Origin: Mizuhopecten yessoensis
Taxonomy: Eukaryota
Assembly: GCF_002113885.1 (NCBI RefSeq)
Contig: NW_018408919.1
Span: 1,392,987 to 1,456,986, forward strand
DNA: 64,000 nt
Direction of reading: 5' to 3'
Position 1 is the stretch's first letter. Each line of letters begins with the position of its first letter. Position numbers and translations under genes: made by a program. Below are positions 10,801 through 57,890 of this stretch, piece by piece. The notes beneath the pieces are model-generated. The model had not been told where the DNA came from and searched no databases. It was given only the letters and a program-made list of their open reading frames with translations.

Positions 10801-13800
10801 GTAAACTCTGTATTCGTTTAGTGTTAAGGTTGCCCTCCACATTTGATCTTTATTTTCATATGTTGTTTACTAATGTTCGCTCTTACAATAAATTCAACCT
10901 CATTACGGAGAGTGAAAAAGACAGTTAAAACTGTGGTGAAAATTTCCTGGAATACAGTATTCCCAGACTCCATAACACAATACCTTGAAGGCTGCGGCGA
11001 GAGCAGTGGCTCCATCGTTCTCCAGCCTGTTACGTCCCGATATAAACACCCGCAGGGCCAGAGGTTTGCCTGCAGCACAGCTCGACTTGTGACAGTCCAG
11101 CAGGCACTGTGAGAGTATCTGTACCAACATGGAAAACAACAATGTAACAACTGATTCTAGGAAGTTATAACAACAATGTAACAACAGATTCTAGGAAGTT
11201 ACAACAACAATGTAACAACTGATTCTAGAAAGTTACAACAACAATGTAACAACAGATTCAAGGAAGTTACAACAACAATGAAACAACAGATTCTAGAAAG
11301 TTACAACAACAATGTAACAACTGATTCTAGGAAGTTACAACAACAATGTAACAACAGATTCAAGGAGTTACAACAATAATGTAACAACAATAGATTATAA
11401 GAATTTATAACAACAATGTAACAACAGATTCTATGAAGTTACAACAACAATGTAACAACAGAATCTAGGAGTTACAACAATAATGTAACAACAATAGATT
11501 ATAGGAATTTATAACAACAATGTAACAACAGATTCTATGAAGTTACAACAACAATGTAACAAAATATTCTAGGAAGTTACAACCCAAATGTAACAACAGA
11601 TTCTAGGAAGTTAGAACAACAATGTAACAACTGATTCTAGGAAGTTACAACAACAATGTAACAACAGATTCTAGGAAGTTACAACAACAATGTAACAACA
11701 TAATCTAGGAGTTACAACAACAATGTAACAACAGAATCTAGGAGTTACAACAACAATGTAACAAAAGATTCTAGGAAGTTACAACACCAATGTAACAACA
11801 GATTCTAGGAAGTTACAACACCAATATAACAACAGATTCTAGGAAGTTACAACAACAATGTAACAACAGAGTCTAGGAAGTTACAATAACAATGTAACAA
11901 CAGATTCTAGGAAGTTACAACAACAATGTAAAAAAAGATTCTAGGAAGTTACAACACCAATGTAACAACAGATTCTAGGAAGTTACAATAACAATGTAAC
12001 AACATATTTTAGGTTATTACAACAGACACCAAATACAGAAATAATTCAGTATAGAAAATATTCAGGTATGTCAACTACCCCAATTTGGTCTGGTTTCACA
12101 AAACAAAGGAGGAGGTGGGTTGGAGGAAATCACACAAACAGTATCCTATATTATCAATCAAATAACAATTTCTGGTAATAAGCCCACCCATACCTATCGC
12201 AATTTAGACTTGAAATGTCAAAACAAAACATTTTGTTGTCCTTTAGTAAGCCCATCCCCTACTTTGAGTAAGAGATTAAATTAAGTGTTGCCCAAAGAGA
12301 TATTTCAAGATAAATATTTTACTTAAATAAGGTCATTTAACAGACAAAGAAATTAAGAGTAAAACCTTGCTATAATGCAACTGTCCAGGGCAGAGTTGGG
12401 TTTTTGTGGATTTTCGTAGGAAGGCCAAAAAAAAAGGAAAATGAAACAAAGAAATAGGTTGGTGGGTAAACCAGGTTGATAAGATAACCTTTCTGCCCTC
12501 AATGTCCATGTTGGTGGGTAAACCAGGTTGATAAGATTACCTTTCTGCCCCCAATGCCCATGTTGGTGGGTAAACCAGATTGATAAGATTACCTTTCCGC
12601 CCCCAATGCCCATGTTGGTGGGTAAACCAGGTTGATAAGATTACCTTTCCGCCCCCAATGCTAGTGTTGATGGGTAAACCAGGTTGATAAGATTACCTTT
12701 CCGCCCACAATCCCCATGTTGGTGGGTATACCAGGTTGATAAGATTACCTTTCCACCCCCAATGCCCATGTTGGTGGGGAAACCAGGTTGATAAGATTAC
12801 CTTTCCGCCCCCAATGCCCATGTTGATGGGTAAACCAGGTTGATAAGATTACCTTTCTGCCCCCAATGCCCATGTTGGTGGGTAAACCAGGTTGATAAGA
12901 TTACCTTTCCGCCCCCAATGCTCGTGTTGATGGGTAAACCAGGTTGATAAGATTACCTTTCCGCCCCCAATGCCGAGACCATTGTTGTTGAGTTTGAGTT
13001 CCTTCAGGGTATAGCAGCTAGGACTCTTCAGCAGTTCTATTAGACCATCCACTCCGGTCGGACCGAAGGCATTATCACTGAGGTCAAGCTCCACTAATCC
13101 AGCTCCAGCAGCTATGATTGCCTTGCCTAAATGTTTCTGTAAAATAAATCAGTATTATTGTGACATTTTGGATATCATATATTTATACATGTTTTAGCTG
13201 TTTTAATGTTTTGTTTTGATGAACAAAATATAAATAGCTATGAATTCATTCAAGTATTAGAAAGCCCATACAATTGGCATTATACCAGCCTGTTCTGATG
13301 CAGAATTTTGAGTACAGATTCCAATTTCACTATTAAAACATGTTAACTTAGATCATTTCCTTAACCTAAAGTAATTCTTAAGTTTAGGAAAAATGCCAAC
13401 TTTAGCTGTTTATGACATGTTCTTGAAGCTGGGGCCTGTAATTTTTTCATTTTGGCCAAAATGACTCAATTTATCTTAAATAGTTACTCATAAGGCCAAA
13501 ATATATATATGGTCTGTTTAGGGTTGCATGGGCCAAAAAACTAGGGTAGGAAGGTCAGACTTTTTTTTTGATTTTTTTTTTTATATTTTTGGTCATGTAA
13601 TTATGACCCTACTATTGCATGTAAAACAAAGAATTACATAAACAACGTTCGTTTGAGGGCAAATTGTGCTCCATTTGATGACATTTAGCGCCTAAACGGC
13701 GCCGGAAGCCATTTTGAAAGGCAAGGAACCTTCTAAAATTCGAAAATCATCAGGGTTTTTGGGGTTTTTTCATCAAAAAGTTTTGGGTCGGGGGTAAAAA

Positions 13801-22502: not shown

Positions 22503-23907
22503 TGGTATTTTCGTACTACAATCATTAATTAATAGAACTCTCAAAAAACGAAACAGACTTTACTGCTGTTTTATAGATTATATAAAGCTTTTGATTTTGT
22601 TAGTTGACAAAATCTTTGGTATAAAATGATTAAGGAAGGTATAGAAGGGAAATTCCTGAAAATAATAAGAAGTCTCTATGCCAATGTAAAATGTTGTGTT
22701 AAATTCAAAGGTGTTACTGAATTTTTCAAATGTGATAGTGGTTTATTCCAAGGGGAAATATTATCTCCCTTGTTGTTTACATTATTTGTTAACGATTTAG
22801 AAATGGATTTTATAAAAAATAATTGCTTATCACTAAAAATTCAAACTATTAATTTATTTTTAAAGCAGACGATATGGTCATACTATCGGAAACACTAGAA
22901 GACTTGCAGAAAATGTTAGATTCACTATCAGATTATTGTAGAAAATGGAGCTTAACTTTAAATGTAGATATAACAAAAATAGTTATCTTAAGAAATGGTG
23001 GTTTAATAAGGACAAAAGAAAAATGGTTTTATAATAATGATGCGATTGAAGTAGTTGATGAGTTTAATCATCTTGGTCTCACTTTAAACTATAATGGAAA
23101 ATTTACAAACAAAAAACAAAAAAACCTAGCAGAACAAGGTCGAAAAGCACTATTTGCCATAACTAATGCATGTAAAAAGAATTATTTTAATATGGAATCT
23201 CGTCTTGCCGTTTTTGACACGTTTGTAAATAGTATTTTGATGTACGGTTCAGAAATTTTGGGATTTCATAAAGCACCCGAAATAGAAAAATTGCATATTG
23301 GATTTTTGAAATCATTATTAGGATTAAGAAAATCTACGAACACTGCATTTCTTTATATTGAATTTGGAAGATCTCATCTAGAGCTGTAAAGAAAAAGATA
23401 AAAAAAAAGATAAGTATTGGATTAAATTACAACGTTCTGATAACTGTGTGCTGAAAGCTTGTTAATGATGATATGGTTGAAAATAAAGACCCCTGGATCC
23501 TTAACTTAAAACATGATCTTTCAAGAGTTGGCCTTGGATACATGTTTGTGACTGATAGTGTTAATCATTCTAGTGAAGTATATAAGCAGCGATTATGTGA
23601 TAGTTTTCAGCAAGATTGTCTAGAGAAAGTTCATTCTTCTTCTAAAGGAGTATTATATCAGCATTTAGTGGAATGTGTTAAATGCAACTATATATTCATA
23701 AGGCAATTCATTTAAATTATCTAAAACATATTTCTAAGATGCGTTTATGTGCGCATGACCTGTTCATTGAACGTGGCCGTTACAGGGATATACCTAGAGA
23801 AGAAAGAAAATGTATTTAATGTAATGAAAAGGATATAGAAGATGAATTTCATTTTATAATTAAATGTAATCGCTATTCAGACCTCCGGTCTAAATACATA
23901 AAGCAAT

Positions 23908-26900
23908 CAGGCGCGTAGCTAGCCTATAAAGAATGTGGATTCAAAATAATCTAGGGGGGTCAGGGGGCATGCCCCCCCTGAAAATTTTGAAATAAATGGT
24001 GCAATTTGGTGCGTTTTGGGGCCTCCGGAGAGCTTTCTTGACCAACGAAAATCCATTTATTTTAGCATAAAAATGGAGATGAATAGCTTTACTTTCGTTT
24101 ATTTCAACTAGTCTACATTTCACAGCAAGTCTAACTTGCGGCCTTTGCTGGCCGCAAACTCGTTAATGATAATATCAATATCTATTTCCATGTGTCTGTA
24201 GGCGTGCAACAGGGCTAGTCCAGACATCCGTTCTGTGAGCATCGTTGATCTCATGTAGTTTTTCAGGCGTCTCATGATACTAAACTGCCTCTCGGCGGTA
24301 GCGGTAGACACTGGCATCGTAATTAGTACAACTAGACAGGTGAAGATGTCTGGATACAGAGTCTTGTTCGTAGCCTTCAATGTGTCAGTAAGATTTGAGG
24401 GTTTTGTCCCCTCCAGCTCCCATCTTACTTTCCATCGAGAAACCTCATTTCGGAAGGCTTCCCGATCCCCACTGAGGTCACTCTCATACTCCTGGAAGAT
24501 GGAATCCTCGTGATCTCGGCTGAGCTCAGGAAGAAGGCTTGGGATGAGATATTGAGCCTTAAACCTCTCATTGCTGGATACAAGACGGTCTTCTAGTTCC
24601 ACAACTAGATGATCAAGAAATGGATAGAACAATGCTCTTTTCCAGTATTCCGAAACAGAGTCGGCAGGCACGTTGCCACGGTGCTGTTGGCGTCGAGCTG
24701 TTCTAGGCTTTGAAGGCTCGACTCCTTGGTCTTCTGCCATGGCAACTGCTTTGTCGTAAAGCCCATCCCACACAGCATCATCGGCTCTCTCTGCACGAAA
24801 TGTGGCTATAAGAACTCGACTCTCCTTGGCTGCTTCGATCAAGTCGATATTCTGCTTCTGTAGCAGCTTGTTTAGAGGCATAACACCCTGGAGGACGAAT
24901 TCAACCACAACTAGAGAGATGATGAAGTCGAACCCAAGGATACTGCATCTGTAGCTCCGTGCTTTTGAGTCTCCCTCTCGTTCTAGCACCTCCAGTGCAC
25001 TTACAATTGATGTGTATGCAGCTTTGAAAGTGTAAAGTGCGTCAGCCCGACTAGCCCATCGCGTCTCACACAGACTTTGAAGACGTGTTCTCTTCTGCAT
25101 CTCTTCCTGTGCCACGGGATCGTTGCCAAGCTCCTCTTTGAAAGCTAAAAGACGTTTGGCAGAGTACTTGAAAGCAAATCCGATTTGTTGTACTGTGTCC
25201 AACAAGTTTCTGACGAGTGCCTCTTTACAGGCATGCACAATTGACAAATTAAGGCTATGGGCTTTGCAGTGCACATACATTGCTTGGGGAACTACTTGCT
25301 GGACCCGAGCTTGCACACCTCGATGACAACCAGACATATTACTGGCCCCATCATACCCTTGTCCCCTCATCTTGGAGATGTCTAATCCTGCGTCCCGCTG
25401 CCCCTCAATAAACTTGTTAAAAAGAGCCTCTCCTGTTGTAGATTCTGCTTGCACAAATCCCACAAAGTCTTCACGCACGTCCTGTTCAGTTTCAGAATAA
25501 TATCTTACACACATAGCAATTTGTTCCATAGTGCTCGCGTCAGTAGCTTCATCTGCAAGAAATGAATAACAAATAGCATCGTTGCACTGCTGAACTATCT
25601 TGCCTTTTATGTTATTTCCCAACAAAGTGATTAATTCATTTTGGATCATAGGCGAAGTGTAAGTAACCTTAGATTTAGAGGACAGGTGTGTTTTCAGGAT
25701 TTCATCCCTGTTGGCCTTGTCTTTCAACAGGACAGTAAAGTTACTATTGTTGTCATCATGACCTCTAAGTGGAATATTTTGTCGACCGCACAGAATGATG
25801 ACCTCTATAACAGATCTAAGCACCTGTCTATTTTTAGCAACAGTTTCGACTTTGTTTCTCGACAGTTGTGCTGTAATGCTTGCTTGTTTCCCTTCGATGA
25901 TTTTCATAAAACTACTAGCACTAGCGCAGCAGCTATGATGACTCGAACCAGGCTCGGTATGTCTCTTGATGTACTTTCCAAGGTTAGACCATTTTGATAC
26001 TGGGGTATTGATGAATGTTTTCTCCTTTGGAGATGAAGCACCAAACAAAATACAGGGAGCACAATACACTGAATTCTCGGAAACTGAATATCGAAGCCAG
26101 TCATACTTCTCTAGCCAATCTACCGAGAACTGACGCTTCGTTCCATACTCAATACTGAAATAATAAAATAAAGAAATAGTGTACGAACTTGAAATGGAAC
26201 AATTTTGCAACCAAATACGTAGAAATCCGGAAAGCAGGGAAGCAAATGATTCCATTTTAATAGTATATATCTAGTATCTTACTAGTATACTTATGATACT
26301 GGTACTTCAATAACGTTATCAGATATATGAGTATATTCACTATACTTTATTCGTCTTAATTATATAGTAAACATGTCATTAGCGCGCTAATATAATTATA
26401 ATGGAACCAAACATCGAACAAGTGGAAGAAGCAGTATATTAATATGGGTTTACAATCGAGTGGTAAGAGACGGGCTTGCGTCTATTTTCCCACATGTACC
26501 ACTCACAAAAAGACCTCAACATAAACCATCGATTTTGAGACCTCGGGACTGTGTTTAGAGATTTTAACGGTATTTTTCTATACAATACTGGTTGACTAAA
26601 CTACAATTTTCTATTGATCTGCAACCGTTATAACTTCACATCTTTAAATCAAATGAATCAGAATCAGTTTACCTTGACGGAAACTTAAAAGTTTTGGCCC
26701 ATTCTTTGTTGTTTTGCAGCACTTTCACTTTTATCGAGTCATCTGAAGCCTTTGTTAACCTTGCTGGATCAGGATACAAGTCATCGGGACTGTACGCAAT
26801 CCCCACGAGCTCATCTTTATCTAAAGTCATAGGTTCAGGACCCTCCTTCACACCAGACGTACCGGGCGCTATAAATATACATATGGAATACATATGACGA

Positions 26901-32452: not shown

Positions 32453-32642
32453 TATTCCGTCTTTTCGTATTGCAGAGTTATCTGCTCTTGTGAGCAGGTA
32501 TCGATTGTTACGTCATTAGTTTTTGTGAGAAAATTACGTCGTTTTCTCAAAAATTTATGACGTAACTCTCACAAACAAATGACGTAACAATCAATACCTG
32601 CTCACAAGAGCAGATAACTCTGCAATACGAAAAGACGGAATA
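32453..32642. mobile_element. Palindromic MITE flanked by TA
   Basis: ~65-bp near-perfect TIR TATTCCGTCTTTTCGTATTGCAGAGTTATCTGCTCTTGTGAGCAGG...; a second copy lies at 53304-53480. Confidence 0.85.
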
Positions 32643-32796
32643 TTGACAAAAAGATCATTAACCTTTTATGGAGAAAAAAAACCTGGACTATCACGTAATC
32701 AGTATAAGCTTCTAGCTAATTTTATGCAATACGTGTAATATTTAGTGAGTAAATTATGGAATGAAATATTATTCATGCCCTTTTTCGATATTTCAG

Positions 32797-35700: not shown

Positions 35701-38700
35701 TACTGTAAATAAGACGTAAAACACGAACAAACCAAACTATATACGGCCTTGAGAAGAAGTTAAGTGTGTTTAATTATTATTCAATTGATAAGAAGAGAAA
35801 GTTGAATTTATTGACATCATGAAAAGTGTTTAATAAAGAATAAACAATTCGAACTCTTGATATAAAAGTATAATGCAATTTCATGATATTAGATTAATAT
35901 ATTTCTTGACATTAGAAATTGACTTTGACATCATTAATAAGATATGATGATATCAAGACTGCGAATTCATGATATCTGGAAATAGGCAATAAGTGGTAGG
36001 TGGAAGTCCAAATAGGTCTAAACTACTGTTAAAAGGGGAGGTGCATAAAATAATATTACATATACATATATGTATATGATTTTTTTTTTTGAATAGAGGA
36101 ATACTGGTTAATTGCAAATAAATAACGAGTAAATTCTGTCTTGTGTGAATCCTGTTACTACTCAAAATATTTTTAAAATATTTACTTCCTTTTTTTACAA
36201 GAACCTGAGCGGGAACAAGCTGATGTCACGTGGTCTTCAGGTTATAGTGGAAACCATGCAGAAAAACACATCACTTCTGTCGCTTGATTTGTCCGGTAAA
36301 TGTTTTCTTCTGGTATTTCATACGTTCTGTAAGAGATATAGTCTACCATTCATATATATTAACATTCTTTTTTATTTTGTCAAATAATATGAGTTGAAAT
36401 AGTGTTGATAGAGCTATAGAAGTAGTTTAACGTCCTCGAACTTCTCTCCACCCCTGGGATATGTCATGAAGAAATCGAATGAAGGTTCGCAGTGAGCTTT
36501 TTGAATGATTTAAGGCTTTGAAATTAAACCTGACCAATTGCTAAGCTAAATATTACAGAAGATCCATATCAAATTTTAAAGCCTGCCTGTTTTACCGTTA
36601 CACTGCTGTGATATTCTATTTGATCTTCATGGAAAATCTTAGAGTAATCGATGTTCCATTTATCAACGTATGTCATAAGGAGATGACGTAATAAATATCA
36701 TACTCCGTCAGTAACACTAATCGAATAACTGATAATATTAAACATGTCTGGATTTCGTATTTCCCTTGCATTTGAATGAGAGATGACTATAAAAGACATA
36801 TTACCTGAACCTGAACTCCAGAGTTTTTGTTTGTTACATTCTGATAAATGCATTTGACACTTTGCACCATGCCCAATCCTACATGAGTTTAACAAAACAT
36901 AGCTTTAAATACGTTTACTTTACTTCTAGATAATAGTTTCACAGACAAGGATACCAGCTGTCTGAAAGACCTCTTACTGGTAATGTATTGGCCCATTCGT
37001 TTGTAATTTCCTTGGTAATTGAAGGGATTCAGTTCAACGTTGAATATGTTTGCAAGCTGGCACTGCTTATGCCTTAATTCATGGATACTTAATTATGTTT
37101 ATATTTTTAACTCTCTGCATTGGATTTTTAAGATAATTGCCTCCATACTTCTAATGATTATTTTACAATTGGTGTTATTTGAGAAGCGATAAATAAGCAA
37201 TGTGTGTCATTGTGTGGTCACTGCATGTGCTCAATACATTTTATATATGATGTTGAGTTGGCTCCTTTTCATAATTTTCCCGATCGGCACATGTCGCGTT
37301 TACGTTTACAATTTTGGCTTAGAGATTACTTTTTACATTTTTTTAATTTCAGTCTAGCTGTGTTCTGCGGGAGTTGAACCTGTCGAAGAACGGATTTGAG
37401 GACAGTGGCGGCGTTCTCATCGCCCAAGGACTGGGTAACATCCCTCTTTATATTAACATATCTTATGATGAGCGGGACAATTATCTATAATTTTGTTTGC
37501 ACTACCCTTTGTTAAAGCAATTATTTTCTACATTTTGCCGAATTCACGATATCTAAGAATGACATACAGACTACCGAATCGAAAGTCTTACAAAAGAAAC
37601 CACCACCCTGTCTAAACCACCACACTGTCTAAACCACCACCCTGTCTAAACCACCACACTGTCTAAACCACCACACTGTCTAAACCACAACCCTGTCTAA
37701 ACAACCACACTGTCTAAACCACCACCCTGTATAAACCACCACCCTGTCTAAACCACCACTCTGTCTAAACCACTACCCTGTCTAAACCACACTGTCTAAA
37801 CCACCACCCTGTCTAAACCACCACCCTGTCTAAACCACAACACTGTCTAAACCACCATCCTGTCTAAACCACCACACTGACTAAACCACCACCCTGTCTA
37901 AACCACAACACTGTCTAAACCACCATCCTGTCTAAAACACCACACTGTCTAAACCACCACCCTGTCTTAACCACCACACTGTCTCAACCACCACCCTGTC
38001 TAAACCACCACACTGTCTAAACCACCACACTGTCTAAACCACCATCCTGTCTTAACCACCACACTGTCTAAACCACCACACTGTCTAAACATTGAGACTT
38101 CGGATATTGTGTGAACAACTAATAACGGTTTGTGTACAACATCTGAACAATTACACCATCTTGTCTATAACCCATAGCAAGTGTAAAACACCTGAATCAT
38201 TGGGTACAATATGTATATTTGTATCGAAACACCACATTATAGAATAAACTTACACGAACAATGATAGACCCTCTCTGATAATTCAAGGACTGTGCAGTAG
38301 TACCTGAACAATTACAACACCTTGTCTACCTCTATGGATTGTAGTTATGTCGAAATACGATATGCTCGAGAAATTCTGAGTAAATCTGTACGTGATTTAA
38401 CTTAACGTAGTTTAACATATCTAAATAAATTAAAATAAAAACATCTAATCGGATTCACGTATTTAACCAATTCATTTTTCTTTTCTTGTTTTCAGCTCAA
38501 AATAAAACGATAAAAAAACTGAACCTCAGCTGGAACCATCTGAGAAGAAATGGAGCATATGCCATCGGACAGAGCATAAAGGTAGGTCAAAGGTCATAAG
38601 GTCATAAGGTCACAGCTTTTTTTAAACAACGCAATGTATCCTTTATTCCGCATTGTAGCAGACTGTCCATGTTGTCCAAATGTTTGAGAAATCATTCGAA

Positions 38701-41700
38701 ATAATACGAAATCTAATTTGATGTAAATATATCAATCGAACAAGTTTAGGTTTCTTCTTGTGTTGTCATTGGAACACTTTCATCAGCATTTGTACTGTTA
38801 TAATTCTGGAATAAAGGAGACGTTGATCATGGTGTGGCACATTTTAGAAGTTTGTCTTGAATTACCGACATTCAAACGGGCATTGAAGATGGAGGGTCGG
38901 AAGGAGTTACAAGTGATGGTCACTCTTAATATAAATATGTATATATTAAATATTGTCTGGGGGAACCTAGGAGTAAATCAAATATATTTCATTTCAATGT
39001 TTTATGGTTACATGTATTATTCATAGACACTTGTAGTTTTGAAATCACGAAATAACAAAAATGCTTCAAAAAACGGTTACTAACTTACTAGCATGTTTTT
39101 CATTGGTCTAGACTAACACTAAATTGGAGGTCCTAGATGTTTCATGGAATGGATTTGACGTTCCTGGTTGTCATGGTTTCAGTCAAGGTCTAGATGCTAA
39201 TACGTCACTCCGAGAATTAAACATAAGCTCGAACAGAATTGGACCCAAAGGCGTGGCCAAACTCCTGGAGGGCCTCAAGCGGAACACCACGCTGGCCTGT
39301 CTCAAGGTTGGTGAAAGTATATACAAACTTTACTTAATGACGTACTGAGTTGAACAAAGTGAGCGATAGCCGATGAATATGGCTTTCCTGAGTAAGAAGA
39401 AGCGTCCGTCAATCCGTGCGCAACTTTGCTTTGGGGCTTATGTCATTACTCTGCCACCTACAAACATAACAAAAACATTTTTGGATGTACTAAAATGCCT
39501 CGCTATATGTAGAGTTAGGACCCATTTTCACCGTGCGCCAATTTGTTGGATGTATGAGTAGATGTATCATACCGGTAAAATCTCCACACATTTTGAGGAG
39601 GGGTGTGGAGGGGTGTGTAGGGTGACCTTTGACCTAGATATGCATGGAATGTATGACGCAATAGGGGGGGGGGGCAGATATGCATGGAATGTGTGGAGGG
39701 AGTTTGACCTAGACATGCTTACAGCAAAGAATGTGTGGAGGGGTTTGACCTAGACATGCTTACAGCAAAGAATGTGTGGAAGGAGTTTGACCTAGACATG
39801 CTTACAGCAAAGAATGTGGGGGGGGAGTTAGACCCAGACATGCTTACAGCAAAGAATGTGTGGAGGGAGTTTGAGCAAGACATGCTTACAGCAAAGATTG
39901 TGTGGAGGGAGTTTGACCTAGACATGCTTGGAACGTGAAACGTCACAACAAAGAATGAGTGGAGGGAGTTTGACCTAGACATGCTTGGAACGGGAAACGT
40001 CACAGCAAAGAATGTGTGGAGGGAGTTTGACCTAGACATGCTTGGAACGTGAAACATCACAGCTAAGAATATGTGGAGGGAGTTTGACCTAGATATGCTT
40101 GGAACGTGAAACATCACAGCAAAGAATGTGTGGAGGGAGTTTGACCTAGACATGCTTTTTGTGGAAAGAATGTGTGGAGGGATTTTGACCTAGACATGCT
40201 TACAGCAAAGAATGTGTGGAGGGAGTTTGAACTTGACATGCTTACAGCAGAGAATGTGTGGAGGGAGTTTGACCTAGACATGCTTACAGCAAAGAATGTG
40301 TGGAGGGAGTTTGAACTAGACATGCTTACAGCAGAGAATGTGTGGAGGGAGTTTGACCTAGACATGCTTACAGCAAAGAGTGTGTGTAGGGAGTTTGACC
40401 TAGACATGCTTACAGCAAAGAATGTGTGGAGGGATTTGACCTAGACATGCTTGGAACGTGAAACGTCACAGCAAAGAATGTGTGGAGGGGACATTCAGGA
40501 CTGAACATGCCCACAACAGACGATGATGTAAGGTCTTCCCTTTAATTTTATTGTTAGACTGAACACTTCCCGAATAAAAAGTAGAGCTATCATATGAAGA
40601 AGTCGACTTTCAAAATGTGGAGGTAAAGTTTGTTATTGTAAGAAAAGACATGTTCACAGTAACCCAACTCAGTCAAGCTTTTAAAATGATGTTATCAGCA
40701 AGAAACAATTTTCACACTCCGCTAAACTAAACGCTTTTAATTCATAACTCGATGTATCGCACTAGTGACATTTCAAGAGAAATGTTATAACCTTAAGGTC
40801 TAAACATAGCCAAACATCCAGAGAAAAGTTTATCCCAGCAGCTTAGTAGGTTAACTTTATAGAATTATGAAGAATGAAGAATTATGTGTAAACTTTAACT
40901 TTGTTGATTATTAAATTTGTTAGTTTTGAAACTTTCATTCTGTGTTCATTTTTATTCTCATTTTAGGTAGTGTTGATGCTTCATTGCAACAGGTGTAGTG
41001 GAAGGTGTTCCTCCCTTATTCCTGTTCCATGGTTGACATGAAATATACTTTGCAGTAGAGTATCCTGGTGATAACATCATTTAAATACTTTAACATTCTC
41101 GTGTGATTCATTGTAAAGTTGATTATATTTGATAAATCAAATGACTGTATAGGGAATTGAATCCTAGATTTTTAGCCTAACGTTCTAACCTACTAAGCTG
41201 CTTGGATAAACTTTTCTCTGGATGTTTGGCTATGTTTAGACCTTAAGGTTATAACATTTCTCTTGAAATGTCACTAGTGCGATACATCGAGTTATGAATT
41301 TAAAGCGTTTAGTTTAGCGGAGTGTGAAAATTGTTTCTTGCTGATAACATCATTTTAAAAGCTTGACTGGGTTGGGTTACTGTGAACATGTCTTTTCTTA
41401 CAATAACAAACTTTACCTCCACATTTTGAAAGTCGACTTCTTCATATGATAGTTCTATTTTTAATTCGGGAAGTGTTCAGTCTAACAATAGCATGAACGG
41501 GAAGACCTTACATCATCGTCTGTTGTGGGCATGTTCAGTCCTGAATGTCCCCTCCACACATTCTCTGCTGTGACGTTTCACGTTTCAAGCGTGTCTAGGT
41601 CAAACTCCCTCCACACATTCTTTGCTGTAACCATGTCTAGGTCAAACTCCCTCCACACATTCTTTGCTGTAAGCATGTCTAGGTCAAACTCCCTCCACAC

Positions 41701-44700
41701 TTTCCATGCATATCTGGGTTTTCCCTCCCCTATTGCGTCATACATTCCATGCATATCTAGGTCAAAGGTCACCATCCACACCTCTCCACAAAAAGTGTGG
41801 GGATTTTACCGGTATAATACATCTACTTGTATGTCTAGTATACAATGTTAAAACATCGCCAAATTGTGTAGTGCACTACAAGTCACATGAAATGCTATAA
41901 ACATAACGCTCAAACAATTTATTTACATATTTGTTTCTCCGATACAACTAAGAAACCAAAGTTATTTCGTGGTGTTTTCAGCTTGCTGATAATCCTCTAG
42001 GCCCTAACGGAGCGTTGGCGGTGTTGAACGCTGCAATGAAATCTCACAGCATCGAGGAGCTAGATTTCGGGGTAAGTACGTGCTCATTGATTGGCAGGAA
42101 TCAGTTTTTGTTACCACATGTCTCTTGTTTATGTATGAGACAAACTCCATTCAAGCATTGATAGTTTTAAGAAAAGAAAAAAGAAAAAAGGAAAAAATAG
42201 CAAATAATCAAATAAACATAATGTTTGAAAATAATTATTCAGGACTCGTTTAAGTAGAGTCACTTGTGTTTGTTAGAAGAGTTCCAATAATAAGTTTGCT
42301 TGCTTTCTTTATTAAAGCAAAGCGTTATGTACGAACGAAATCAGGACATCAGATCCTCGGGTCTCTTCGTCATGATATTTCTTATGTTAAGGCTTTCCTC
42401 CAAACTGATTGGATCATTTCAAAATGTTCGTACTCCTTAAAAGAGTCCGCAAAGTATGATTGTCAGTGCAAAGGTTTCGAGAAAAAAGGAATAACTTTAA
42501 GGATCACCGTACTACTGCCCAAAATTTTAACTGTGCAATAAAAACTGATTTTTTTCTGGCATTACTACAGCTTTGATAAATCAATTCTGAAAAGAAAAGC
42601 ATACCTTGCGGGGATAAGGCAATAAAGTCATAAGGCAATCAAACAATGTTTAATCAAAAGTAATATTCTGAGTGTAAAAATTCAGCAGGGCTAGACCGAT
42701 ATTCGAACCCTGGACCTCAGACTGTGATACCATCGCTATACCGAGTGTGCTTCCTAGTCAACGGAAGCATCCTGATCCAACTTTGCTACATAATATCGAA
42801 AAGGAAATTAAGTGGAAGTTTCACCAGGGTGCAGAAGGACAGGGATCCTGAACAGGAAATCCTTTTCAAGGCCATTAAAAGCTGAAAGATTCTTACATAG
42901 CTTAATCAGGCTATAGTCACTTGACCACTGGCTTATGCTTTTTTGATTAAATGACAGCATAATACATATAAAATATAAAAAAAAGCTTAAAACAAAATTT
43001 CTATATGTCAAACTTTCTGAAGGAGAAACGTTAATTGGCTTTTTTCACCTGTAGTTATAAGTGAATGGTATTATTTTTCAGAACCAACCGGTGACGGCGG
43101 AGTTCGAAGACCTTCTAACAAAAATCCAGGCTGGCAGGGATATAAAAGTGCGCTATGGAAAAGAACCATCTAAAGCTAAACGGGAAGTTTGTGATGAAAC
43201 TCTGTACATTGCCGGGAATCCTCTTATTATCCTCTTTGAATTCATTCGTATGAAGAAACTGGACATCCTAAATCTGTTTAAGACCCTCGATGCCGACAGT
43301 AACCATTCTATATCATGGGAAGAATTTAGGATTGGAGTAAAGGTAACATACTGCGCATCCATTGTTTATATTAAGAACTCCCGCTGATGGCATAATGAAC
43401 AACAAATAATTTCCGAAGGGAAAACAAGATTTTTCGGCCTACTGGCCTTCTTCAAGCGCACAAGTCAACGATTCTTTCAAGTAACGTTTATCTTGCTTCC
43501 TTCGGAGAGGAAATGACGTAGAAAAGTATGACGTCACAATGACTCGTTGAATATATGACGTCCTAGGAAAAGTGTGAAACGTAGTTTTTTTACTCCAATA
43601 TAAAACAAAATACGCACAATATCTGCACATTATCAAGTTTGAATAATTACCTGACGTAATGAAACATAAAAAATCTCACAGCGTCTAAAACTATATATCG
43701 ATACCAAAAAGGCAACCGACCCTGTGTTTGTTGATGGGTGTTTTCTTCTCCTTTTAATGAAAGAAAACATTAAACTTCACCAAATTTAACAAAAGTTATC
43801 TGTTGCAAGTTATTCACACAGGTGAATAAATGGCTCAACATGTTGCGTTTTGACATGGTTACATTCAGGAACATATAAACAATAAATGATTTCTGGGAAA
43901 TGTTTGCCTCCATCGGTTATGTCAAATATACTGTCAAATATGCGATTGATTTTATGTTAAAAATTATTAAATCAATCTGATTCAATAAGGTTTGGAAGGT
44001 ATAAATCTGTAGATAAGTTTGAACACTCATATGAAAGAAGTAAAGCTGAAAAAAGTGACCATTTTTGTTCAACAGAATTCTACTATATGTATGAATTTAC
44101 ATATATATATGAATGCATATAATTGGTTAATTAAGCATAATACAACGACAGTGGAATGTGTTGATATTAAATATCAATGAATAGCAAAAACATGTTTAGT
44201 CTTAAATCATTATCACACATGATTGAAATACAATACAATAATAATATTGTTTTTCAATTTACTCATTACTGTACTACATGCGATTGATCATTGTTGAGGT
44301 TAATTATAAAAAGGTGGTATTGCTATGAAAACACTACATGCTATAACAAGCCGTAACACTACATTCAAATGCTTATGAATGTGTTGATACCAGTACATTT
44401 ATAGTACATGTTATAGGTAAAACACGCTGTACTATGTAGTAACTGATATTTACCTTTTTTTGTTAACAGAAAAGCCACATACCTGTCCGGCCAAAAGACC
44501 TTGAACAGATGATTGACAAAATGGACCTTGATAAGGACGGAGAAATAAATTTTAGGTATCTTATTTAGTATCATTTAACTATGATGAGACACCAAAAGAG
44601 CACAGGGTTATTTTTCTAACCAATGCCGGAGTAAACATAATTTTGTTAACCCGAAAGCCTCATATGATCTTTTGAGTATTTGACAACGGCTGAACGTCGA

Positions 44701-51000: not shown

Positions 51001-54000
51001 AATGACGTTGTAATACATCAATAATAATTTTAAGGATACAACAGGGAAATATCAACTGTAGGATCCCGAAAAAGTTTTTTTTGTGCAACTTTTCCTACAA
51101 AATATTGCAAAGACTTTTGTGTCAGCTATAAATGCAAATATCTTTTGAGGAAATTATCAGATTTTTGCGAAAATTGTCTCGGTATACTGTCATCAACAAA
51201 ACAATCCCTCAAGATGGGATAGGTTGGCAAAAATAATGCATATTCCATGAAGGGAATTTTATCTGATTGGTAGATGGGTTCTGAATGGTATTCATTGAAT
51301 GGATTATCATATAGCAAAGAAACTTGTTTAAGAGATATACAACATAAAACCCTCGCTCAAGCTTGATACCCAGCTAGTATAATAGTATACCTAATATTAG
51401 ACAAGGCTGCTGCGAAGCTGCATTTGCTTCCTTCATTACGGTTTGAAGTTTGCCAAATATTTTTATATATATATCACTTGTATGGCAACCGATATTTATA
51501 TGCATCTCCAATAAACCAATGCATGCCTTCTATTTACTCTATCACAGAGGAAGAGGAGTATTACTATGTTGACAACAGTGATGAAGACGCCAGTCAGAAG
51601 ATCTACACAGATGCATGCAAGGAATTCGGGGCCAAATACATGAAGCTAATTTACAACCAGCTCGTGAAAGAGACATTAAGTTTACTCAGTGTGGTACTTA
51701 GAACCTTGGACAGTAAGGCGTTCGCTACATCCCTAGTGGTAAGTAAGATGTGATTGGTCGATGTGCGAATTCGGTTGCTTAGGAACGTTGGCCGTTTTAA
51801 CCATAGTTTGAAACTCCCTTGTAATATGGGCAATCCAAACCGATGCGATGCATTGAATTCACGATGTCCATTCTGTCAATGAATAAGGATAATGCATTCC
51901 TGCAGTATTGTATGAGGAGCAATATTGCCATATGAGGGAGTGATGGTGCACGTTTTAATAAGCCATAACCTTATATCCTATTATAACGTTTCCACAAAAC
52001 CGACTTTATTTCATTGATTATTATTGTATTTCACAATTTTATAGCATAAATAAAATAATGATTTTCTGTTCACCAGAAAAATTCGTCCATTGACACCTTG
52101 ATTCTGGAGAATAACCGGATTGGGGGTCGAGGGGCGAGATACTTTGCAGAGGTGCTGACTCGGAATACCTATCTCACAGACGTGGTAAGCCAATCAAATC
52201 GCCGGTTACAACGCCGTTACAGGTTTGGGAAAGAAAAGATCTGCTGTAACCCACTGCATGTTTCTGTTAGAGGCGACTAATGTAGAGCCAATATGAGCCG
52301 ATCCCATGCGTACATTGAATTAACACGAGAGAGCTCTTTATACATTGGTTACGCGACTAAAATTTGACAAAAAAATGATATGGTTCAACTATGAAGAAAA
52401 AAGACAATTGAATAAAAAAAAAAACCACAGCATTCACGAGGAAGTGGGCTGTTGTTTATGTTTGCTATAGCGCTTTATTTAATATGATAAACTTACGAAA
52501 AGTCTCAGAAAAAAATAGACCCTTGGTGAGTGTGGTAACAAAAGAGAATATTGTATGTGATAGTGGATATGATAGATATTATTATTTCATGCTTAATATT
52601 AGGTGGAAAGAGCATTCTTCTCTTGTGGATCACAAATTGAGGTTTGGTTTCATCCAAGTTGTGATCCCGTCTGGAGAAATACTTTATCCATCTCGATTGA
52701 TTACGAAAGGGTCTTATCGGCTTATATCTATATTCACCAAAGTAATGTTTTTCGTTTAAGTTAAGTGAATATGACTCAAAGAAATTGTCCTGATTTCTTT
52801 TCTTCAAATATATCAAAACATAATAAGTTACAATGCATTAGAATAGCGATTTCTTTTCCAACAGAAAATCGTCGAGAATCATTTAGGTTCGGAAGGTGCC
52901 GAGGCGATATGTAAAGCACTATGTCACAACAACTACGTAAGACGACTCGATCTATCAGGTAGAAACTTCAATATATATTTAATCTTAGATATTCATCGTC
53001 TGTGGAACATAATGCATGACCGATAATTGATTTTGTTTAAAAACAACTTTGTATAAGAATGGTTAGAAGTCAATACATAAACATGTATTTTACCTTTTTC
53101 CTTTATATATATATATTCATTTCTTATTTAATTGATTATCATTTATCATTAATTTCTTAATAGAAAGTGTATTTTATTATATACCGATATACAACAAAAC
53201 CTCGATATAATGCCCTTCGTTTTTATTTGCCACCTCGTTTACCGCCAAGATATTTCAATGTCCCTTATTCTCTTTTTCCTAAGTATAACGAGGTTTTACT
53301 GTATATTCCATCTTTGTGTATTGCAGAGTTATCTTCTCTTGTGAGCAGGTATTGATTGTTACGTAAAAAATTACGACGTTTTCTCAAAAATTGATGACGT
53401 TACTCTCACAAACAAAGGACGTAACAATCAATACCTGCTCAAAAGAGAAGATAACTCTGCACTACGAAAAGACGGAATTACTGTCTGCTTAATGTTTTAC
53501 AGTAAAGGGTTTTCTAGAAATATATGTCATGTTTTTATTTGACAGGAAATGGTTTCATTGAAGATGATGCACTCTTCTTCAAAGACATGTTAGACGTGAG
53601 TAGAGTAAAGGAGCGTCACTATTTTTTTTTATATGTTTTCCCATATCATTGTCATCTTGTTTCTGCATTTCTCTAATAAGGGTTTAAGTTAGGGATATGG
53701 CAATACGATTTTTGAACGAAATTTTATGGTTACAAAATTTCGCAGTCTGTGATAGATAAACTGGTTTGGAAAAAAATGTATGACATCCAATAAAACAATA
53801 CGAAACAAAATAGTTCTGTCAGACGGTTTTATGGTATTTACTATAACAAATGACTGGTCAAAAAAGGTGTAGGACGGGTGAAGCAACATTTTATTTGAAG
53901 CTGAAAAAAAGAAATGATAAAAATATTATTATTATTATTTATTTATTTTTTAATCACCAACTGCAAAGGATTCAAATATAACAGCAATGTTTCTTTCTGC

Positions 54001-57000
54001 AAGAGGTGGAAACAAAAATGGCTCTAGAATCCTTCAATAAACATTTTTAAAAATTAATTGAACGCATCTTGTAAAGAACATGCTTGTTAATGGGAACTTG
54101 ATCCATTAATAACAAAGTAAAACAAAATCTGTAACATACAAAAAAAGTTCCTTAAATACATCAACCTTTCTGTAAACTAAAGGTAAACCACATAATATCA
54201 AAACACATTGCAATTAAGCAACAATCGTTGGACGCTTCTGACGAACGCGACCTCTGTCGCTGCCGAAGTCTACCCTTATATTATATTTCCATGCATAGAT
54301 ACATGGACTCTATGCCATATATGTGAACAATAAATTAATCAAGTCATAAAATGATATCATTTTCCTGTCTATCCAGGAAAACCACGCCTTACGAGAACTG
54401 TACCTTGGTCACAACGAGTTCCGGGAGAGAGGCGGTGAGGTGTTTGCAGACGGGCTTGGTAGGTGGTCTGTATAAAAATAATAAAAATGCTTTCTCAAAT
54501 TTGATTTATTTTTTGTTTCCTTTTATTTTAAATTGAATTCATGTACTGTAAAGTTCTAATCAACAAGTGGTTAAAGTATAAAGAACAATATTTGAGTGAT
54601 TTTTTTTATAATATTTCACGACACATCTACGTTCAGGTTAATTTGCAATGAAAGATGTTCTCCATGCAAATTATAATTCATTTAAACTTTAGATCGAAGG
54701 CCATTTGTCCTTTCGCGAGACTCATTCTCGCAAGTATGTCGCTGGATGAACAATGGGGAAACTAGCTATCTATAAAAATGAAATTTACATCATGTCGAGT
54801 GTGGTGTGTTAGTTGTGCCATTAAATGTCGTAAATTAGCATATGTTGACGACTCCTCTTCCGTGAAGAACACGTTTCTCCCCCAATAAATCGTTATTTTT
54901 TTTTTACTTTTAATCTCTGATGTTTTCAGATTGGATTCATCCATACATGCGTGTCAGTTGCACGACTAGTTGTCTTTCTTGTGGTTTAATTTCTTTTTTT
55001 ATATATATACTGAAAAACAACATAATCTAACAATACTTTAAAATAATATAAAAAATTCAAAAGGATTATTTTATGTTATAATGTAAGCAGCTTTTACCAA
55101 GATAATTAAGTCTTTTCTAGTGTCTTACATTGATTTAGATAGTAGCTTCATTACACTGTAGGTATGTTGAAACTCTCTTACGAATACAGGTACATGTAAA
55201 TACGTCTCAAACTGAGTGAATTTATGTTCATATTGACTATACCTTATCTTTGGTTTCCATAGCTACGAACGACTTCCTAAGGGTGCTTGATCTTAGTTGG
55301 AACCACCTGCGTATGGCCGGAGCTACAGCAATAGGAAAGGCGCTTCAGGTAGGCGAGAAAATTCTGCAGGAAAGAATTACTGTTCTCTTAGAAAAAGTAA
55401 AGGCGCCTGAAGAGAGACATATGGCACCTAGTGTGATGTCTCCCGTAAACTCCAGAAATATGTGCTGGCCACCAACAATCTACGACACAGCTAATGATGA
55501 TGTCTTTCATTTTTGCCGATATGAAGGATAGTACACTGCACAACTGAAGAGGGTCTATTAAGAAATTTAAATGATATATTTGAACCAAATGTGAAGTTAA
55601 ATTAATTATCGTACAGCTTCTAAACCACGCCCTTTTTACAGGTCAATCGTCATTTAGAAAAGCTGGATATTTCATGGAATGGTTTCCACGTGCGGGGCGC
55701 CATCACAATGAGCAAGGCGCTTGAGACAAATCAAGCTCTCTCGTATCTCGACATAAGCTGCAATCGCCTCACTGACGCTTGTATCACGTGTCTGCTACAA
55801 GGACTGAAGCACAATTCTACGCTGAGAGTCATTCGGGTTCGTATAACCTGTTTGCTGTTTATTACATAGAGACGGGTATTTATATTAACTGTTCCTATAC
55901 TTTCTTTTTGTGTATACATTGATATACATTATTATTTACAAACACGATGTTGTTTATTTGCTGACTACACGCGGCATTTAGTAAGAATGGTGTTCATGCT
56001 GCTTTCCACTTTTTTTTCAGATGGCTAAAAACCCTATGTTCCCGGCCAGTGCCCAAAGGATCCTTGAGTGTGTCCAGGAAAATCCTAACATAGGATTGGA
56101 TCTCATTGACCTCGGAGTCAGTAATATTTTCACTTCATAATCTCAGAGAAAATCTTGTATTGAAAAACAATTGTTTTTGTTTTGAGACATATTTGTGCTT
56201 TGAGAGAAGAGACCATCGTTTTTTTAAAATATTGTGAATATTCATTAGGATATATCTACAGTGGAAAATGTAACTGTTGCTGCTAAAATCGAATAAAAAT
56301 CAAGAAACGTTAAAAATAATTTCAAACATTTTTTTAACCTCATTGTCGTCTTTTGAAACCAGTAAAATACCGTACATATTGGTTTTTGCTTAGTTTTAAA
56401 TTGTTCCTTGCACTTATCTAAAAATTAAGTTTGTTTGATGCAGAAACCTAAACAAAGTAAATAATTACTCTGCCTATATAAACTTGGTTAGTTTTGTGCA
56501 AGAAAAGCTCGCCTCATGCCCTACCTACTTGGTGCGTGATAACCCCTCTTGGTATGTTTGTCTCTTCGTTTCTCTTTCTTCATATCGAGTTTGTGTTCCG
56601 ATGTTTTCTTTTCGTTATTCTGTTTTCGATTATATTTGTCACTTCTTTATGGTCTCTTTGGCTTTATGCTTGAAAGTGATATAAATGCATATCTATAATC
56701 CGCTTGATCAATATGATTAACTGCCACAATCAGTTAGTTGACTTGGATTTATGCACATCATTCCAATTTTGAATTTAACTCATATTTTTATCCCTCACAG
56801 GACCAAAGTGTGACAGAAAAGTTCTACGAGATCCTGTCAGGCCTGAATAAGAAGCGACAAGGGTTCAAGGTGAAATACGGCGTGGTTTGGAAGGCTGACA
56901 GGGAGGTTCTAGGCAAACAGGATGACGATGAGGACGAGGACGATCTCATCAACGAAGACCCTCTTCTCGTCCTTATGGAATATGCGCGCATGGAGAACAT

Positions 57001-57890
57001 TTCACTAGTGGAACTCTTCGTCAAACTCGACAGTGACAAGAGCGGGTCGTTATCACGAGAGGAGTTTATGGACGGTTTGGAGGTACTTATGGCTCTCCTC
57101 CGGAATATACTTTATAGTTATTAAAAATAGCAGCATTATGCGTCTAAAGTTTCAAAGAAATAATTATCACAATAAATATCATATAAATAAAATGAAGAAA
57201 TCACAATTGACCCTGCTGAATATGTTTGAAATCTTTGTGAATTTTCCAAATTGTGAAACAGCCAAACATGAATAAGATTTAAATCTTTCTTTAGCGTCGA
57301 AACATTAGAATATCATGTTAATTGATAATAATACGTCCCGAAAGATATACACTAGCTACTGTATGATGGCAGCAGTGCTATGTATTGGAAACACTGTTTT
57401 TATTTTCAACAGCAAGTCAACATTCCAATGAGGAGAAAAGCTCTGAATAAATTGATCGACAAGATGGACCAGGACGGCGACGGAGAAATTGATTTTGAGT
57501 AATTATACCTGCACACTCTTGTTTATATTAATCTCCTGAATACTACTAGATAACGGAAAATAAAAATCTGCAAAGAGTCGTTTCTATGATCGGATAATAT
57601 AATTCATATCTTATATAAATAATTAAGTCCCAACTATCACATAAACAATGATTTGTATTTTGTCTAAGGTGTAATCTGGTTAGTCGATATTCGTATTGAC
57701 CTCAAAACTGGTCAATGATGATTTTTCTTAAACATCTTTCAGTGAACTGATGAGTGCTCATGACGAACACAAAGACAAGCTCAAAGAGTATTTACAGGGT
57801 GATGTCCCTTTGGAAGAAACGGAAATTGGACGGATTGACAAATCTCTGAGAAATGTCATGAATAAACGGTATATAATGCATAAGTTTTAA
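48037..57890 (+). CDS. LRRC74A-like LRR + two EF-hand protein, paralog 2; firm exons 50639-50921, 51548-51738, 52077-52184, 52865-52958, 53546-53595, 54377-54458, 55263-55348, 55642-55836, 56021-56116, 56801-57082, 57413-57498, 57743-57890; tentative 5' exons 48037-48085/48105, 49755-49777, 50098-50166
   Basis: Phase-consistent exons; YTDACKEFG N-cap, LRRs (LILENNRIG, LDLSGNGF, LDLSWNHLR, LDISWNGF), EF loops DSDKSGSLSREE and DQDGDGEIDFDE; exon sizes 108/94/50/82/86/195/86 are identical to paralog 1. Confidence 0.87.
49340..49539 (+). mobile_element. Penelope-like element RT C-terminal fragment
   Basis: CSEYHDFSNRCRLLTDKLTTLSFKRYMLKKTMGKFNGRYHDLIGKY resembles the post-RT helical region of Penelope-like elements (from recall). 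Confidence 0.6.
53304..53480. mobile_element. Second copy of the palindromic MITE at 32453-32642
   Basis: Shared TATTGCAGAGTTATCT...GTGAGCAGGTATTGATTGTTACGT arms. Confidence 0.85.

Follow-up and report, generated by a model that had tools for sequence, protein, structure and literature searches.

We describe an element of 2,271 bp, at positions 39557-41827, in a 64-kb window of genomic DNA from the Yesso scallop, Mizuhopecten yessoensis (contig NW_018408919.1; the window is the whole 64,000-nucleotide stretch that was analysed, and all positions refer to it). The element lies in an intron of an LRRC74B-like gene and is a real structure: one insertion with a 6-bp target-site duplication, AGTAG...CTACT ends and the anatomy of a foldback element. 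It carries no genes. On the basis of its sequence it is likely to be a non-autonomous derivative of the Polinton/Maverick elements, a virus-like lineage of mobile DNA.

Boundaries and ends of the element

To place the boundaries, we slid both ends through 20 symmetric offsets and at each sought flanking repeats of up to 14 bp. A flanking repeat longer than 4 bp was found at the 39557/41827 boundary only, where TGTATG is repeated exactly at 39551-39556 and 41828-41833. Of the 20 offsets, it is also the outermost whose terminal 8-base stretches complement each other. Both the duplication and the AGTAG...CTACT termini had been proposed in a first-pass annotation of this DNA, made from the sequence alone, and both are confirmed here. 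The left end of the element is AGTAGATG and the right end CATCTACT. TGTATG has a frequency of 4.4e-4 among the 6-mers of the window, and when 90 starts (AGTAG or AGAGAG) were combined with 57 ends (CTACT or CTCTCT) across the window, this was the sole pair with a 6-bp duplication. In both arms the sixth terminal base is A, giving an end that reads AGTAGA and not the canonical (AGT)2; it shares five of six bases with that motif, AG recurs at a 3-base period, and the chance that a random arm starts with AGTAG is about 1 in 1,000. Alternative boundaries, namely a TA start and the offsets -1 and -3 with their 4-bp repeats, were rejected, as they lacked either the complementarity or the duplication.

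Unequal arms with tandem arrays

The two arms, of 1,297 bp on the left (39557-40853) and 642 bp on the right (41186-41827), make up 85% of the element. They had been annotated as reverse complements of ~1,300 and ~640 bp. The lengths hold, and 614 of 639 aligned columns are identical (25 differences plus indels), but neither arm is a plain reverse complement of the other, as 17 tandem units on the left face 3 on the right. Each arm consists of a terminal domain, then a tandem domain and then a 364-bp non-repetitive inner domain (Table 1), and the 655-bp gap in arm length is due almost wholly to the array of 42/57-bp units, for which Tandem Repeats Finder gives 18.8 copies versus 2.7. This foldback-type array, which the annotation had not named, forms most of the left arm, where 11 of the 17 units are of 41-43 bp, one is of 44 bp and the remaining five, the last of which is shortened, belong to the 57-bp type. 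The Jukes-Cantor distance between the arms is 0.040, and 0.032 in an inner block in which 406 of 419 columns are identical. Folded as single-stranded DNA, the element forms 620 arm-to-arm pairs, and the terminal 7 bases at either end pair with each other; this follows from its being an inverted repeat, as any such repeat would fold in this way.

Several smaller features of the arms were also recorded. Within the 419-bp block the arms differ at 13 positions, and four of these fall within 8 bases (40541-40548), a cluster that suggests a single multi-base event. Positions 40580-40594 of the inner domain echo the element's first 15 bases at 13 of 15 positions, a match that was spotted post hoc and was reached in 12 of 1,000 shuffles; the right-arm mirror of this echo differs at two of those positions. 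A 26-bp stretch of the spacer (41060-41085) shows 85% similarity to the inner domain (41333-41358 on the right, 40681-40706 on the left). The motif TGACCTnTGACCT, which we take to be a nuclear-receptor DR1 site, occurs once in each arm (39623 and 41759), that is, twice in 2,271 bp compared with once in the 60,930 bp outside. TGACCT hexamers number 20 inside the element and 48 outside, and those inside are not independent, because they stem from the tandem unit. If the element were a satellite of Mavericks, a doubtful reading taken up in the Discussion, the tandem units, with these 20 hexamers and one TGACCTnTGACCT per arm, could bind proteins of the helper or host nuclear receptors.

The window contains N gaps, the assembly being scaffolded, so assembly may have altered the unit counts: arrays may be collapsed or inflated, and the figures of 17 and 3 units are perhaps untrue. 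We regard it as highly improbable that the whole structure was created by faulty assembly, or that a dispersed repeat was duplicated in inverted orientation by chance. With 25 differences in 639 positions and indels besides, the arms are unlike a chimeric fold-back read, a duplication placed exactly at the ends has a chance of ~4e-4, and words of the element are present in independent sequencing runs. In that run search we sampled 369 words of 38700-42700, and 15 listed runs of a single organism, from five studies, each hold a fraction of 0.62-0.67 of them. Flanks and junctions explain at most ~0.49 of the distinct words (0.44 by position), which indicates that independent samples contain sequence of the element; the assembly's source may be among them, and the counts are silent on copy number and on presence at this locus.

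Coding content

The element is gene-less, with no convincing match to a protein family. Across the inner domains and the spacer between them the longest stop-free frame is 55 codons, in agreement with the AT-rich spacer of ~330 bp without an open reading frame that had been annotated (332 bp, 30% GC). Stop-free frames of 75-156 codons run across the tandem arrays. When three of these array frames were compared with Pfam, two had no match and one had two matches, both below the curated cut-offs, and a search of Rfam gave no match at E<=1. Scanned for sigma-70 sites, the spacer gave 5 (versus 1.8+/-1.6 in shuffles), a result that was set aside as meaningless in an animal. Autonomous Polintons carry genes for a protein-primed polymerase B and a retroviral-like integrase, and usually also for an ATPase, a protease and capsid proteins. 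With none of these core genes, and with a length of 2,271 bp compared with 13-25 kb, the element is not an autonomous Polinton.

Probable affinity with Polinton/Maverick elements

Comparisons with published systems are drawn here from passages of the cited papers. Mavericks/Polintons are described there as making a 6-bp duplication and having 5'-AG ends (PMC6839031), and intact vertebrate Mavericks as spanning 12.7-24.6 kb with arms of 46-1,447 bp (PMC8097293). A survey of molluscs that included M. yessoensis reports Mavericks in every genome surveyed (PMC10294476). The one copy of the scallop element has a 6-bp duplication and 5'-AG termini on inverted arms of 642 and 1,297 bp. It thus shares with Polintons the duplication length, the terminal AG and inverted arms of hundreds of base pairs to ~1.4 kb, and differs from them in its 2.27 kb, not 13-25 kb, in its lack of core genes, in the 85% of its length that the arms take up and in an AGTAGA end where (AGT)2 or (AG)3 is described (PMC8097293, PMC4196379, PMC3014272). 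Repbase is stated to assign a non-autonomous element to a classified one when both have the same duplication length and their termini align over positions 1-11 with at most one mismatch (PMC4455052).

Among other groups with 6-bp duplications, IS3EU and GingerRoot are reported to end in TA or TG (PMC10045372, PMC6839031, PMC12730594). They resemble the scallop element in duplication length and inverted ends, and differ in having TA..TA or TG..CA ends and, for GingerRoot, arms of 100-150 bp. We rejected membership in either, as the TAGATG...CATCTA frame has no flanking duplication and no TA-start frame has one. Taken together, a 6-bp duplication, 5'-AG ends, long arms and the absence of genes fit Polinton/Maverick better than the other 6-bp groups for which end sequences could be compared. 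The first-pass reading of a minimal non-autonomous derivative with Polinton/Maverick-type ends, mobilized in trans, is partly supported, with the reservation that the terminal hexamer is AGTAGA and not (AGT)2.

A proposed model of mobilization in trans

We favour, with moderate confidence, a reading in which the element is a non-autonomous Polinton/Maverick foldback mobilized in trans; the helper, the trans-mobilization itself, the panhandle copying and the family status are parts that we infer. The retroviral-like integrase of a helper Maverick would recognize the ends, excise the element and insert copies with a 6-bp stagger, as in the published Polinton model. The displaced single strand would fold to a panhandle by means of the long arms, and the helper's protein-primed polymerase would copy this panhandle from the terminal AG, with AGTAG permitting a jump-back from positions 4-5 to positions 1-2. 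In the published model of Polinton replication, the single-stranded intermediate is racket-like (PMC4196379). After insertion in the LRRC74B-like intron, the element would be spliced out with the intron. The tandem domain would have grown or shrunk by slippage or unequal exchange, or been partly collapsed in assembly, and the unequal arms would result from this. Provided that every replication equalizes the arms, their divergence of 3-4% would mark this copy as not fresh but older and decayed.

Several points weigh against such a Polinton origin. One source gives Polinton duplications as 5-8 bp (PMC10748475), which makes duplication length alone a soft marker, and hAT6, whose end sequences are not given in the passages compared (PMC12730594), also makes 6-bp duplications and has inverted ends. 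The AGTAGA of both arms is none of the three published Maverick end motifs, which are (AGT)2, (AG)3 or (AC)3A and are thought to serve jump-back priming (PMC8097293); these motifs are from vertebrates, and our literature search found no Maverick end motifs for molluscs. Foldback anatomy has mostly been reported from Mutator and P elements, with most foldbacks placed in Mutator (PMC4079207), and a survey of the lizard Anolis reports no non-autonomous Polinton copies (PMC3014272). We saw neither a helper nor a further copy nor an empty allele; copies were sought in the 64-kb window, where no sequence beyond the element matches it at E<=1e-3. Three public collections (viral, metagenome and prokaryote) were scanned with patterns from the element and yielded no relative and chance matches only.

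The anatomy itself supports a different explanation. As is characteristic of the foldback structural class, its long arms are modular, with a flanking, a tandem (outer) and an inner domain each, and they enclose a non-coding middle; its layout of end domain, tandem domain, inner domain and middle matches that of Tetris domain for domain (PMC4079207). It might be the non-autonomous foldback form of a DDE transposon that moves by cut and paste, of hAT6 or of an unclassified group that makes 6-bp duplications, with the tandem units acting as extra transposase-binding sites, as in Galileo, whose internal repeats bind transposase (PMC4079207), and with no polymerase involved. The 6-bp duplications of hAT6 (PMC12730594) and the deviation of the end from canonical (AGT)2 are consistent with this origin, which we nevertheless consider unlikely. 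Tetris makes duplications of 8-10 bp, compared with 6 bp here, where no longer one appeared at lengths up to 14 bp and 20 offsets, and among foldback elements, of which Tetris, Galileo and FB are examples, those that have been assigned belong to the Mutator or P superfamily, whereas the ends here are AG..CT (PMC4079207). The TA or TG ends of IS3EU and GingerRoot argue against it as well, as does the loss of the duplication when the boundaries are shifted away from AG..CT. Elements of the hAT superfamily end in YA..TR, which also counts against a cut-and-paste foldback.

A second alternative accounts for the Polinton-type ends equally well. A full-length Maverick could have inserted here and lost its interior by deletion in place, leaving a one-off remnant whose short form was never a mobile family. 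Such decay would be in keeping with the 96% of vertebrate Maverick loci that are reported as degraded (PMC8097293), with arms that have diverged by 3-4% and with a second copy not being seen in the window. Both ends and the duplication are intact, however, and the spacer has no coding remnant. Copies that retain both ends usually belong to non-autonomous families, and with these points in mind we think it quite improbable that the element is a gutted Maverick.

Candidate relatives that were set aside

The best match outside the element within the window at word size 7 (22 bp, E=0.084) lies in the flank of a hAT element and was rejected. The terminus 19-mer was found 0 times in viral contigs; in metagenomes it matched 2 loci, which are the same GC-rich bacterial intergenic stretch with only 19 bases matching, and these were discarded. 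The terminus 16-mer matched 101 viral loci, which we dismissed as chance. Across the 103 terminus-matched loci no alignment was better than E=0.02, and one was longer than 27 bp (56 bp, 75%, E=0.26). Tandem-unit patterns occurred 0 times in prokaryote genomes and 0 times in viral contigs, and an inner-domain 30-mer 0 times in prokaryote genomes. Four element motifs and the words 'Maverick' and 'Polinton' likewise gave 0 matches in the 33 supplementary files of PMC10294476, a weak negative, as the text is incomplete and sequences may be wrapped or cut.

Host gene and surrounding window

The host gene was identified by a search of one exon against longer proteins, which gave 1 match among 74 candidates, to an LRRC74B-like protein of Mizuhopecten yessoensis (P0001) with 100% identity over 73 residues; along the five exon stretches tested, the identity to this protein is complete (315 of 315 residues). 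Residues 308-371 are encoded by the exon upstream of the element and residues 372-401 by the one downstream, so the LRRC74B-like protein model passes over the element. The host intron would measure 398 bp if the element and a single copy of the duplication were taken away.

Table 1. Positions in the window of the element's domains, its target-site duplications and the surrounding host exons and intron
Feature	Position	Strand	Basis or remarks
Host exon upstream of element	39112..39306	+	39115-39306 = residues 308-371 of P0001, 64/64 identical
Host intron holding element, GT..AG, phase 0, 2675 bp	39307..41981	+	Exon match to P0001
Left target-site duplication TGTATG	39551..39556	+	Sequence
Left terminal (flanking) domain, 148 bp	39557..39704	+	Starts AGTAGATG; G-rich; TGACCTnTGACCT present once, at 39623
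Left tandem (outer) domain, 17 units	39705..40489	+	Repeat analysis
Left inner non-repetitive domain, 364 bp	40490..40853	+	97% identity to right inner domain
Middle spacer, 332 bp, 30% GC	40854..41185	.	No long frame, no Rfam match
Right inner domain	41186..41549	-	Alignment to left inner domain
Right tandem domain, 3 units: two 42 bp, one 57-bp type	41550..41686	-	Repeat analysis
Right terminal domain, 141 bp	41687..41827	-	Ends CATCTACT; TGACCTnTGACCT motif at 41759
Right target-site duplication TGTATG	41828..41833	+	Sequence
Host exon downstream of element	41982..42071	+	Residues 372-401 of P0001, 30/30 identical

A second, diverged LRR/EF-hand paralogue of the host gene lies in tandem at ~52000-57500 (+), with ~35-46% identity in the matched exons; the corresponding intron of this paralogue measures 184 bp and lacks the element. 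Another host gene contributes an LRR-coding frame at 12852-13148 (-), which may resemble RanGAP1. The window also holds an uninterrupted hAT transposase frame of 715 codons at 24126-26270 (-), with matches to DUF4371 (E=4e-21) and Dimer_Tnp_hAT (E=8e-8). The ends of this hAT element were sought and not found, and the frame has no DNA similarity to the foldback element. A decayed retroelement has left a fragment of reverse transcriptase at 22853-23386 (+) (RVT_1, below the cut-off at E=1.6e-5), and two copies, 86% alike, of a ~190-bp palindromic repeat resembling a miniature inverted-repeat transposable element lie at 32453-32643 and 53303-53478.

Discussion

Non-autonomous Polintons are already known by name. 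Two Repbase families bear names of the non-autonomous type, Polinton-1N1_DR (PMC9341505) and Polinton-N1A_NV (PMC11296320), the latter still with a capsid gene. The term non-autonomous Polinton has also been applied to Tlr1 (PMC5499653), and butterfly Polintons that lack polB seem still to be mobile and keep other genes or cargo (bioRxiv 2025.02.07.637071). The scallop element shares with these families and with the polB-less butterfly Polintons the same proposed dependence on a helper. None of the named non-autonomous Polintons is described as gene-less or as a foldback in the names and short passages, rather than sequences, by which we compared them. In a full-text literature search, with Repbase Reports and most subscription papers outside its scope, no title or start of an abstract dealt with gene-less foldback Polintons or with this scallop element; the gene-less foldback form may be described outside the literature searched.

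The replication of Polintons/Mavericks rests on a sequence-derived model (PMC4196379), and Maverick virions were unobserved as of PMC8097293. The element might be a minimal true satellite of Mavericks, that is, a gene-less multi-copy panhandle copied as a free linear molecule by the helper's protein-primed polymerase and possibly packaged in Maverick capsids, an extension that we offer tentatively and hold to be doubtful; such a satellite would confine the cis signals of Maverick replication to no more than ~640 bp per end. As a cut-and-paste foldback or a one-off remnant, the element would be an ordinary unclassified scallop repeat. If it is instead a non-autonomous Polinton/Maverick foldback, a gene-less rider of 2.3 kb would mark the cis-acting minimum of Maverick replication. 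The history of its copies could then test the prediction of the panhandle model that arms are equalized in every round, and foldback anatomy would extend beyond Mutator and P to a virus-like lineage. For the scallop, both arms lie in one intron, so that a pre-mRNA hairpin of ~600 pairs is possible, which may yield small RNAs or editing.

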